DNA of 64,000 bases from assembly GCA_963702895.1 (NCBI GenBank), contig OY969767.1, forward strand, positions 1,600,001-1,664,000, given 5' to 3'. The translations under genes were made by a program, and so were the position numbers. The number at the start of each line of letters is the position of its first letter. The stretch's first letter is position 1. The DNA is from an uncultured Elusimicrobia bacterium. Lineage in GTDB: Bacteria; Elusimicrobiota; Elusimicrobia; 2-01-FULL-59-12. Below are positions 405-53,181 of this stretch, piece after piece. A model generated the notes under the pieces. It ran no database searches and was not told the DNA's origin. It saw nothing but the letters and a program-made list of their open reading frames with translations.

Positions 405-590
405 AAAAGATTAGGTAGGTTCGCCGAGAGATTGAGCAGGTCCCTCGAAGATTAGGTAGGTTCCCCCAGAAAGATTAGGTAGGTTGGTGGAAAGATTAGG
501 TAGGTTCGCCGGAAGATTGAGCAGCTCCCTCGAAGATTAGGTAGGTTGGTGGAAAAAGTGAGCAGGTTCCTCAAAGATTAGGTCGGTTGG
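405..590. repeat. Tandem array of nine ~21-bp direct repeats (cores GATTAGGTAGGTT and GATTGAGCAGG)
   Basis: Cores begin at 409, 430, 450, 473, 494, 515, 535, 556 and 576 (spacing 20-23 nt). Confidence 0.9.
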
Positions 591-2608: not shown

Positions 2609-2884
2609 ATGAAGTTCGAATGGGATGACCGGAAAGCGGCCATCAATTTTGCGAAGCATGGTGTGTCGTTTCTGGAGGCGGCAGCCGCATTTGATGACCC
2701 CAGGGCGCTTTACCGTGATGATCCGGGTCATTCCAAGACCGAGCCCCGCCTGCATGTGATGGGGCGCTCCGGACGTAAACTCCTCGCCGTCAGTTACACC
2801 TTAAGAGGAGAAAATGTCAGACTCATCAGCGCACGCTTTGCCAGCAGACAAGAGAGGAGATGGTATGCGACAACGCAAGGATAA
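2609..2884 (+). CDS. brnT: BrnT family toxin (type II TA)
   Basis: MKFEWDDRKAAINFAKHGVSF...RLISAR.A. Confidence 0.92.
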   Translation: MKFEWDDRKAAINFAKHGVSFLEAAAAFDDPRALYRDDPGHSKTEPRLHVMGRSGRKLLAVSYTLRGENVRLISARFASRQERRWYATTQG

Positions 2885-3170
2885 GAAAATGGATTTTGGT
2901 GATATTGCGGAATGGTCGGCAGAAGACTTTTCCCGTGCACGCCGCTCAAATCCAGATGAACGCAAGCGATTTCGAGCTGCATATGTTCAGACGTTCGGGC
3001 ACCCTCCGCCGAAGCGTGGACCAGTACATAAGCTTGCCTCAGAGCGCTATATCCCGACCTATATCAAATTGCACCCAAAAGTCATCGAGTGGGCCAAGAG
3101 CGAAGCGAAGCGCCGCGGCATCGGCTATCAAACCGTCATCAATCAGTCACTTCTCAATCACGCAGAATAA
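2865..3170 (+). CDS. brnA: BrnA family antitoxin
   Basis: DFGDIAE...IKLHPKVIEWAK...GIGYQTVINQSL; GGAG RBS before ATG 2865; overlaps the brnT stop. Confidence 0.88.
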   Translation: MRQRKDKKMDFGDIAEWSAEDFSRARRSNPDERKRFRAAYVQTFGHPPPKRGPVHKLASERYIPTYIKLHPKVIEWAKSEAKRRGIGYQTVINQSLLNHAE

Positions 3171-3247
3171 GATCCGCAAGCGCGGTATACTTCAGCCAGC
3201 GTGCGTGCCAACGAATCAATGGCGCGCAATCCGTTCAACCCTCTCCC

Positions 3248-3373
3248 GGCGCAGTCGACGCCCACGACTCCACCACGGCGGGCGTCCGCCGAGTCTAGAG
3301 TGGCGGACGGGATTTGCCGCCACGACGTCTTTGGCGGGCGCGCCAACGCCTCAGTGGCGCGGAACACGCGATC
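3248..3373 (-). pseudogene. Degenerate 3'-half copy of tRNA-Asp carrying two twin-hairpin insertions
   Basis: Removing the inserts (3316-3361 and ~3260-3307) leaves GATCGCGTGTTC|AAATCCCG|TCGACTGCGCC, versus GGTCGCGGGTTCGAGTCCCGTCCGCTCCGCC in the adjacent tRNA. Confidence 0.7.
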
Positions 3374-3384
3374 TTTCCTCAAAG

Positions 3385-3461
3385 TGGCGGAGCGGACGGG
3401 ACTCGAACCCGCGACCTCTGCCTTGACAGGGCAGCGTTCTAACCAACTGAACTACCGCTCC
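3385..3461 (-). tRNA. tRNA-Asp(GTC), CCA encoded
   Basis: GGAGCGG acceptor; anticodon arm CTGCC-CTGTCAA-GGCAG; T-loop TTCGAGT. Confidence 0.97.
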
Positions 3462-3682
3462 AAAACTGGTCCCATACAATACAAGTAATCGCTTAATTCC
3501 AAATCGTGGTGTCGTAATTGGTGTCGTAAAACACCCCCTGCGCCACCCCCTCTTTGTCGAGGGTCCTTCCAAAAAACGTTAACCGCGCTACACCACCGTT
3601 GCTTCCTATCTTTTAAGAAGCAACGGCCATCGCCAAGCGCTCGAGGGAGAGGGCCTGAGTCCCCTTATGAACCCAACCCCTG

Positions 3683-3934
3683 CTACTTGATGCGCTGCAG
3701 GGCCTGAGGTATGGCCATTTCAGAGAGAATGAGCTCTCGACTATCGTACACCTTCTGGACGATCATGCCCGATAGACCGATGATGAGAGATCCCGCAATC
3801 ACGAGTGTCGTTAAAAACGAATACAACCGAACTTCATTTCTGTCCTTGACGTACTGCTTGACAGCGCCAAGCACATTCATGGCAATCAAGTAGCACGTCA
3901 AAATGACGATGGTCGCGTAGGCGCTTGCAAACAT
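3683..3934 (-). CDS. Small hypothetical membrane protein (2 TM)
   Basis: 83-aa ORF with strong AAGGAG RBS and two hydrophobic helices. Confidence 0.65.
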   Translation of the reverse strand: MFASAYATIVILTCYLIAMNVLGAVKQYVKDRNEVRLYSFLTTLVIAGSLIIGLSGMIVQKVYDSRELILSEMAIPQALQRIK

Positions 3935-4013
3935 ACTCTCTCTCCTTAATAGGCTTAGGATATATCAGGATCGCCCGCTCATGCCCTTAGGGCGGGGAAC
4001 CCACGTGTAAATT

Positions 4014-4085
4014 TGGGCGGTGCAGGATTTGAACCTGCGACCCCTGCCTTGTAAGGGCAGTGCTCTACCGCTGAGCTAACCGCCC
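4014..4085 (-). tRNA. tRNA-Val(TAC)
   Basis: GGGCGGT acceptor; anticodon arm CTGCC-CTTACAA-GGCAG; T-loop TTCAAAT. Confidence 0.96.
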
Positions 4086-4214
4086 GACCGATTCTGCCGC
4101 AGACGTTTGGTGGACCATTTCATCGGGACTGCACAGGCCCCCATACTGCCTGTGCCTGCACTCCACGAACAGAGACCGAATTTTACCAGATTTACATGAA
4201 GGAGATTTTCGGGA

Positions 4215-10578: not shown

Positions 10579-10602
10579 TGGATTAACCTCTTCAGTCGAG
10601 TA

Positions 10603-10716
10603 CGTCATTCCGGCGGAAGCCGTCCGCCAGACGTCTGGCGGACTGTCCCTTCCTATGATCTCTAGGGATGGGGACGGAATCTATCATGATAGACCCCGGC
10701 TTTCGCCGGGGTGACA
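10603..10716. repeat. CGTC-type REP dimer with nested insert; left arm of a 79-bp IR around purN
   Basis: CGTCATTCCGGCGGAAGCCG...GAATCTATCATGATAGACCCCGGCTTTCGCCGGGGTGACA. Confidence 0.8.
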
Positions 10717-11347: not shown

Positions 11348-11465
11348 CGTCACCCCGGCGCACGCCGGGGTCCAGTCGATGTTCTGGATTCCGTCCCCAT
11401 CCCTAGAGATCATAGGAAGGGACAGTCCGCCAGACGTCTGGCGGACGGCTTTCGCCGGAATGACG
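11348..11465. repeat. CGTC-type REP dimer with nested insert; right arm of the 79-bp IR around purN
   Basis: 11387-11465 is the reverse complement of 10603-10681 with one mismatch. Confidence 0.85.
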
Positions 11466-11485
11466 TTTCACTACAGAGCATTGCA

Positions 11486-52357: not shown

Positions 52358-52793
52358 AGCGCGGTCGCCAGACTTTTGGCGACAGGTCGCCGGTTCATCC
52401 GCCACACAACGGGCGGATGCCCGACTGTAGTGTGTCGGGCAAATCCGGCCGCCCCGAGTTTTTTTCGGGGCCGGGTTCCGCGCCACTACGTCGCTGGCGC
52501 GCCCGCCAGGATGTAGTGGCGGGAAATCCCGGCGCCCCGACCCAGTAGCGACAAAATAGCGCGGTCGCCAGGTGTCTGGCGACAGGTCGCCGGTTCATCC
52601 GCCACACATCGGGCGGATGCCCGATCGTAGTGTGTCGGGCAAATTCGGTCGCCCCGAGCCAGTTGATGGTGCGGTACCGGGTTCATCCGCCAGACAACCG
52701 GCGGATGCCCGCCTGACGTGTGGCGGGCAAATCCCGCCCGCCACTAAAACACGGCGGGCGCCCGCTGCGGTGCAGTAGCGGGCGGCGCCCCGA
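52358..52793 (+). repeat. Array of four tRNA-Pro 3'-half copies, each with a twin hairpin in the T-loop
   Basis: GGTTC[44-45 nt]AAAT...CGCCCCGA at inserts 52397-52440, 52479-52523, 52597-52640, 52685-52728, plus a further insert at 52736-52783. Confidence 0.85.
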
Positions 52794-52959: not shown

Positions 52960-53181
52960 AGGATCTGAAGGATAACCGATAAGGACCCCCAGGCCCGGTT
53001 GAAGGAACATCATGAAGGTGTTACTCGATCGGCTCGTCCTTATATACCCTTTGAATTAGTCTATACTCAACACTTTGAAGATGCTGCCTTGGCCCGGAAG
53101 CGAGAGAAAATCTTTAAGATTGGAAAGGGAAGGCAGATCTTAAAGAGCATTTGGCGTGAGCATCATTTTCTGGGCCGTTAG
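52960..53181 (+). pseudogene. GIY-YIG nuclease remnant (GIY/YIG motif region deleted)
   Basis: DPQARLKEHHEGVTRSARPYIPFELVYTQHF...ARKREKIFKIGKGR matches the C-terminal two-thirds of short stand-alone GIY-YIG proteins; LKDNR remnant upstream in another frame. Confidence 0.75.

Follow-up and report, generated by a model that had tools for sequence, protein, structure and literature searches.

Several described systems resemble, each in part, the arrangement reported here. In the Ssn/SRM system a tiny single-domain GIY-YIG gene has on its flanks short, polar hairpins in which certain letters are conserved (PMC11893778); the Ssn nuclease was shown to cut near its own hairpin, not to move it, and the gene-hairpin arrangement was likened to a mobile element (Chenal et al. 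2025, PMC11893778). Neither "tRNA" nor "cd10449" appears in the main text of PMC11893778. REP, REPIN and BIME repeats are outlined as inverted palindrome pairs that fold as twin hairpins or as one rod, form heterodimers, lie nested in other palindromes and occur in dozens of extragenic copies (outlines in PMC3733652, PMC8049555). Integrative elements can leave downstream of a tRNA gene a dead 3' fragment of the same orientation, which can differ from the working gene (summary in PMC9897764). The phage GIY-YIG nuclease SegB is enriched beside tRNA genes and drives amplification of tRNA segments (outline in PMC13096335), and the double-hairpin elements of fungal mitochondria are summarized as short, GC-rich, non-coding twin hairpins that are thought to be mobile (PMC10085805).

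The locus described here lies in a window of 64,000 nucleotides (positions 1600001-1664000) in the single-contig 2.72-Mb genome of an uncultured Elusimicrobia bacterium (G000). ARAGORN called 48 tRNAs and a tmRNA in this genome; an overlapping Glu-TTC artefact was dropped, leaving 47 tRNA genes, with only one for Asp. Behind the Asp gene, a dead tRNA tail is plugged by two inserts, each a pair of abutting hairpins (a doublet); such plugged remnants are called ghosts below. The features, in window coordinates, are as follows.

3385..3461, minus strand: intact tRNA-Asp(GTC) (ARAGORN; Rfam RF00005, 75 bits)
3374..3384, minus strand: 11-nt spacer from the CCA end of the tRNA to the dead tail (sequence)
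3362..3373, minus strand: dead tail part 1, with the end of the variable region, the 5' T-stem strand and GTTC
3339..3361, minus strand: insert 1, first half (E1), a type-B hairpin with an 11-nt loop, at C56^R57, no duplication
3316..3338, minus strand: insert 1, second half in reversed polarity (type B, one stem mismatch)
3308..3315, minus strand: dead tail part 2, the 3' T-loop with A57 and the T-stem up to C63-G64
3309-3308, minus strand: first copy of the target CG, within dead tail part 2
3285..3307, minus strand: insert 2, first half (E1), a type-B hairpin with a perfect stem
3283..3284, minus strand: insert 2, inverted middle copy of the target CG
3261..3282, minus strand: insert 2, second half in reversed polarity (type B, two substitutions)
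3259..3260, minus strand: insert 2, third and direct copy of the target CG
3248..3258, minus strand: dead tail part 3, the 3' acceptor strand
3578..3596, minus strand: 5' piece (D-arm region) of the other tRNA-Asp isoform, the likely partner of the dead tail
3597..3664, minus strand: uncertain; by alignment, 6 nt that may begin the old isoform (3664-3659), then 62 nt inserted from a different hairpin family
52686..52782, plus strand: fourth Pro ghost, with type A in the T-loop and type B at CG, doublets at the same two sites as in the Asp ghost
52969..53151, plus strand: broken tenth GIY-YIG gene between tRNA-Arg(TCT) and tRNA-Lys(CTT), grouping with the type-B-linked subclade

The 6-nt match at 3664-3659 may be a chance one. 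The original prediction, of a tail on the minus strand behind tRNA-Asp interrupted by a 46-nt twin hairpin and then by a second one, agrees with the sequence and its coordinates. Its first insert, expected at GTTC^AAAT, was found there at 3361-3316 with neither spacer nor duplication. The second, expected in the 3' strand of the T-stem, comprises 3307-3261 and one additional CG at C63-G64, so that the 49-nt excision first proposed is equivalent. Hairpin 1 of insert 2 starts with letters that extend the match to the adjacent gene, and the parse after insert 1 is therefore not unique. A contig from an independent sequencing run (X3) spans 3341-3414 with one difference in 74 letters and then diverges; it runs from the tRNA through the spacer and the T-loop piece into hairpin 1, of which it has the first 21 nt, so this junction is no assembly artefact, the remaining ghost lying outside the contig. 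The ghost is outside what the runs X1, X2 and X4 cover. An Rfam search of the window returned eight tRNAs and nothing else. An intron-bearing or split tRNA was rejected, as the insert-free sequence is a 31-nt tail with no anticodon arm and the 5' piece lies 200 nt off, past the intact gene. The anatomy of the Asp feature is real and general, and the dead tail with its two inserts is an old, decayed, ordinary member of a family.

The unit of this family is a polar hairpin of 20-23 nt, NN-CGMC-loop-GKCG-NN, with conserved loop letters, and it occurs in two subtypes: type A with an 8-nt loop and type B, found in both Asp inserts, with a 10-11-nt loop. The halves stand tail to tail, as two inverted palindromes in the manner of REP dimers, in 54 of 57 resolved pairs. 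When copies sharing a context were collapsed, no homodimer was seen among 46 doublets and one identical whole doublet recurred; seven halves recur with different partners, and the subtypes are mixed in 1 of 47. Halves combine freely within a subtype. A strict scan of G000 found 76 doublets, an uncontrolled loose scan 155, and an earlier looser one 103 against 14 in a Markov control. Of the 155, 56 lie within 600 bp of a tRNA, as do 1.9% of random positions, and the remainder lie elsewhere, many within REP-like and heptamer repeats.

A survey downstream of all tRNA genes, which the original prediction had called for, found 33 T-loop doublets at C56^R57 beside 20 of the 47 genes (26 type A, 7 type B), and a narrower pattern gave none on the opposite strand near tRNA genes. 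Other doublets sit in the D-arm, anticodon-loop and T-stem of relics and in unrelated repeats; at Gln and Phe the ghosts form tandem arrays. The C63-G64 site of the Asp ghost was seen again at Pro. Recurrence at unrelated tRNAs had been read as a general process with preferred sites, and that reading holds; the doublets are not specific to tRNA, however, and the tail is probably no copy of its neighbour. The likeness to the fourth Pro ghost holds for both sites, the T-loop and the CG of the 3' T-stem strand, but not for the T-loop subtype: the Pro insert has the 8-nt loop and a 2-nt triplication, the Asp insert a 10-11-nt loop and no triplication. The 3' flanks of type B are less identical to the gene (86/112) than those of type A (383/416), so type B is likely older. 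The type-B doublet pattern had no match in viral contigs. The strict T-loop type-A pattern was met in 2 of 301 genomes of the phylum and in five stretches of GTDB representatives, all Elusimicrobia/Elusimicrobiota; at this strict setting, the type-A T-loop pattern is lineage-restricted.

Other repeats were seen beside these. A third hairpin type exactly replaces the anticodon arm in tRNA relics at window 52360-52385 and 52560-52585; it is also present in Ala-TGC, Ala-GGC, Thr-GGT and Arg-GCG relics and adjoins Ala-linked GIY-YIG genes in G000 and in two related genomes, G303 and G305. Inverted arms of 80 nt (99%) at window 10602-10681 and 11387-11466 carry an SRM-like repeat with nested hairpins, and the 210-aa gene that they enclose looks to us like purN. 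A degenerate array of 20-21-nt direct repeats lies at window 406-588, with a similar array behind the Val-CAC ghost at about 1394700, and tRNA-Ala(GGC) is immediately followed by a long tract of a 4-nt simple repeat (G000, about 1700690-1700830), which may be real, masked or an assembly fault.

The inserts leave a distinctive footprint. The halves of a doublet are separated by 0, 1 or 2 letters, and across all loci examined this spacer is the reverse complement of both flanks, giving a direct-inverted-direct arrangement, in 49 of 53 distinct spaced doublets; in G000 alone it complements both flanks in 32 of 38 and one flank in 6 of 38. The triplicated words are CG (33), CA (13), C (2) and CC (1), and the same letters are present once in the uninterrupted target. 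In the T-loop the middle letters track base 57 of the parent in 40 of 41 cases after de-duplication (G57 27/27, A57 13/14), and in 46 of 47 when tandem copies are counted; the pattern by which part of these loci were retrieved requires a purine, a pyrimidine and CR at these places, uncoupled from one another. Insert 2 of Asp carries CG threefold at C63-G64, as does the fourth Pro ghost. Longer triplications of 4-60 nt were sought as intermediates and none was found. A direct-inverted-direct footprint would not arise from an element with fixed ends.

A candidate partner enzyme was found in the small GIY-YIG genes. Of the nine GIY-YIG matches in G000, one is a 447-aa frame and the other eight are small genes, five of which adjoin tRNA genes; the broken tenth gene at 52969..53151 is a candidate relic of the enzyme for the Asp insert type. 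In a tree with UvrC-length frames excluded, the order's small GIY-YIG frames fall into four groups: Ssn-like genes, recognised here by their SRM flanks; YhbQ-like genes, one per genome; a Gln-linked trio; and a branch standing mostly beside tRNA genes, which we take to be SLX1-like. In PDB this last branch matches UPF0213 proteins (E 2e-5) and SLX1 (0.05). Within it, a short subclade with a deletion of 7-8 residues occurs in G000, G258, G301 and G305. These are exactly the genomes with at least six spaced type-A doublets (24, 10, 6 and 6, respectively), the other eight genomes of the order having 0-1. A metagenome scan by the short-subclade protein alone returned 20 loci, namely eight full-length short-type genes (one a duplicate, dropped), four short-type fragments, seven longer types and one spurious match. 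Type-A halves and a tRNA gene lie close to each of the seven new full-length short-type genes; two of the fragments have type-A doublets, and the two at contig starts are without them.

Pairing was counted as halves within 300 nt of a gene, for which the background is 2% (A) and 4% (B). Type A adjoins 12 of 12 short-subclade genes, seven of them from the protein-only metagenome scan, and type B 1 of 12; beside the subclade with one additional residue (the +1 subclade) type A is found at 1 of 5 genes and type B at 4 of 5. A small GIY-YIG gene with its own hairpin on the flanks, as in Ssn, is thus present in both subclades. The counts are 2/11 (A) and 1/11 (B) for the other SLX1-like genes, 1/3 for each subtype at the Gln-linked genes, and 0/23 in the control clades (Ssn-like 0/11, YhbQ-like 0/12). 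Each hairpin subtype adjoins its own GIY-YIG subclade, the type-B link to the +1 subclade being weak: n=5, of which four were already known when the count was made, tree support is poor, and one fragment groups elsewhere. G306 carries an intact +1-subclade gene. Type-B doublets number 16 in G305, 6 in G301 and 5 in G303, where no +1-subclade gene was found, which counts against strict dependence; G064 has one type-B doublet and no SLX1-like gene, and G304 one type-A doublet and no short subclade. Since nuclease genes and hairpins both stand at tRNA genes, part of the pairing may reflect a shared hotspot. The other SLX1-like genes, of which 7 of 11 lie beside a called tRNA and so few beside either subtype, limit this effect and do not remove it.

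At the Asn locus of G000, a tRNA end, a nuclease gene and a T-loop doublet form a unit that is present as two tandem copies; the two short-subclade genes there lie at 1813193-1813693. At tRNA-Leu(CAA) of G303, a GIY-YIG cassette with a 20-bp palindrome, different from the present hairpins, sits in the D-arm of a 5' relic between two internally deleted copies that lack the gene. Two Ssn-like genes of G000, at 543339 and 554279, each have NTS/SRM-like hairpins on their flanks.

Compared with the described systems, the doublets work like Ssn/SRM or REP/RAYT, with a nuclease tied to its own hairpin, yet depart from both in their defining features. The tRNA-adjoining genes branch apart from the clade of SRM-flanked genes (support of that clade 1.00), and only 30 residues align between them, and among the Ssn-like genes of these genomes an SRM-like motif lies within 150 nt in 9 of 11 and the present hairpins in 0 of 11. 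The profile of the half-element has neither the NTS/SRM consensus nor the oriented CGTC flank (both as outlined in PMC11893778), and the hairpins here are abutting pairs in tRNA relics with triplicated target letters. REP and REPIN differ by their fixed GTAG/CGTC tag, in whose place the flanks here are target sequence. Likewise, in contrast to REP/RAYT, no intact RAYT is flanked by these hairpins, the spacer is a copy of the target, and the tie to tRNA relics is strong; G000 holds one weak Y1_Tnp fragment of 89 aa (E 1e-4) and no intact RAYT, and the flanks of the fragment, viewed by eye, are without these hairpins. The tails of integrative elements differ in that here no integrase or cargo separates gene and tail, the hairpin inserts are precise and 5' relics are common. 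SegB is phage-encoded and its outline mentions no hairpin inserts (PMC13096335), whereas the genes here are chromosomal and encode 73-88 aa. The mitochondrial elements, compared by their general description, are organellar, and that description names neither a partner enzyme nor a targeting of tRNA relics (PMC10085805). Within the open-access full-text literature, no account was found of hairpin doublets in tRNA relics or of such a nuclease pairing. The family is one of nuclease-associated hairpin repeats with an unusual footprint.

The alternative that survives best, though it is unlikely, holds that ordinary REP-like repeats, dispersed by recombination, slippage and gene conversion in the host or by an enzyme since lost, account for the doublets, that the GIY-YIG genes hitch-hike at tRNA hotspots, and that the triplicated letters are later compensatory changes. 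REP dimers with spacers of 1-2 bp and dimers nested in other palindromes are indeed described (as outlined in PMC3733652), the tandem ghosts of Gln and Phe are local amplifications, and some genomes have doublets and no candidate nuclease gene. Yet the pairing is subtype-specific (12/12 against 2/11, 0/11 and 0/12), there are four distinct triplicated words and 40/41 agreement with the parent base 57, homodimers and identical whole type-A doublets across contexts both number zero, and an intact RAYT is lacking in G000.

The tail itself was compared with the Asp tRNAs of related genomes. The original prediction put the ungapped identity to the tRNA-Asp 3' half at about three quarters, and the insert-free 31-mer indeed matches the adjacent gene at 24 of 31 positions (77%), the best among all 48 ARAGORN calls, by a thin margin over Leu-CAG (23), Pro-TGG (22) and Glu-CTC (22). 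The shuffle control also bore the match out: plain shuffles reached at most 20 in 2000 runs, and 0 of 5000 shuffles that kept the T-loop consensus reached 24. Two Asp isoforms exist among the Asp tRNAs from 8 of the 12 genomes of the order, and the tail matches that of G302 at 27 of 31, the 3' part of that of G309 at 25, those of G000 and G308 at 24 and others at 22-23; the margin of 27 over 24 is three letters. Base 57 of the tail is A, as in G302 and G258, where the neighbouring tRNA-Asp has G57. The 19-nt D-arm piece at 3596-3578 matches the Asp tRNA of G258 at 18 of 19, and with up to three mismatches allowed the genome has no other such match; the isoform of this piece occurs in G258, G301, G302 and G303. 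The order at the locus is hence old 5' piece, working gene, old 3' tail. The syntenic Asp loci (Val, small gene, Asp) of G308 and G064 are without the ghost tail, and an Asp gene of G258, belonging to the other isoform, has a type-A ghost of its own. Elsewhere, compensatory T-stem pairs separate ghost from gene in 15 of 50 ghosts (one parent assignment may be wrong), and the stems of Pro-TGG gene and ghost are swapped between G000 and G258. The genomes compared are kin, and several are 73-90% complete. Together these matches argue that the Asp tail is probably the relic of a displaced older tRNA-Asp allele and not a copy of the neighbour. The tRNA loci here appear to have undergone repeated allele replacement and duplication that left 5' and 3' relics.

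Other remnants accompany these loci. Inverted repeats lengthen the acceptor stem by 6-12 bp in 19 of 47 tRNA genes of G000, 13 of 43 of G064 and 13 of 42 of G258, and are not specific to doublet-rich genomes; an upstream 5' relic is present at 11 of the 19 extended G000 genes and at 4 of the 28 others. A dead full-length tRNA-Asn copy upstream of its gene (G000, 1813921-1813990) holds three doublets, two near the start of the D-arm and one in the T-loop. At the Asp locus, short direct repeats lie upstream, and the dead tail is separated from a lipid A acyltransferase gene by a BrnT-BrnA toxin-antitoxin pair (window 2609-3170). A gene end of similar appearance directly precedes the other Asp isoform in G258 and G303.

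Rather improbably, the tail might be a classical att-site scar: an island driven by an integrase would have delivered the present Asp gene, and the doublets would have settled in the neutral scar only afterwards. Such a reading addresses where the tail came from and can partly coexist with a nuclease-hairpin origin of the doublets. A displaced 3' fragment of the same orientation is a known island signature (summarized in PMC9897764), and the BrnT-BrnA pair just past the tail and the direct repeats upstream would fit it. Against it, only 11 nt separate gene and tail, the four matches to tyrosine recombinases (PF00589) include none within the window, and such tails stand at 20 of 47 tRNA genes, many with 5' relics too. 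It is very improbable that selection maintains the plugged tails as RNA elements of the tRNA precursor, signalling its processing, stability or termination, as their place just downstream on the same strand and the compensatory variation of their stems might suggest, given that syntenic Asp loci do without them, that the same doublets occur in upstream 5' relics and unrelated repeats, and that the Asp copy is decaying, folds unremarkably (z -1.6 as DNA, -0.3 as RNA together with the tRNA) and has no promoter- or terminator-like site in the 2900-4200 scanned.

The reading of the Asp stretch as a dead tail, likely of a displaced allele, whose doublets a small tRNA-associated GIY-YIG nuclease made together with host repair, is on balance the favoured one, judged from sequence comparison. 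The nuclease would recognise its own hairpin in single-stranded DNA, as Ssn does, and free hairpin oligonucleotides. A break in folded DNA, staggered or blunt, would then receive one hairpin on each of its 3' ends, with breaks likely at C56^R57 of the T-loop, at C63-G64, in other loops and in REP-like repeats. Each hairpin would fold back and copy 0-2 overhanging letters by short synthesis, and the ends would anneal through the copied letters to give L-x-E1-x'-E2'-x-R. Capping of both 3' ends would yield exactly this arrangement. Insertions in a working gene would be lethal, so that only relics retain doublets, and as no nuclease gene is left at the Asp locus, the enzyme would have acted there in trans.

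A broader proposal is offered tentatively: tRNA-resident GIY-YIG nucleases of 75-85 residues may mobilise the 20-23-nt hairpins of their own subclade by capping both ends of a break, and may also drive tRNA allele replacement, the old halves persisting as hairpin-plugged relics. If true, this would be an insertion chemistry without transposase or integrase, with a direct-inverted-direct footprint of target letters, and site-specific ssDNA nucleases would gain new members, mobile DNA a minimal unit of about 20 nt, and tRNA alleles a route of turnover. It would bear on the spread of REP-like hairpins without RAYT and on the role of single-domain GIY-YIG proteins outside Ssn, for which this family of loci offers named enzyme-hairpin pairs and a diagnostic insertion footprint.
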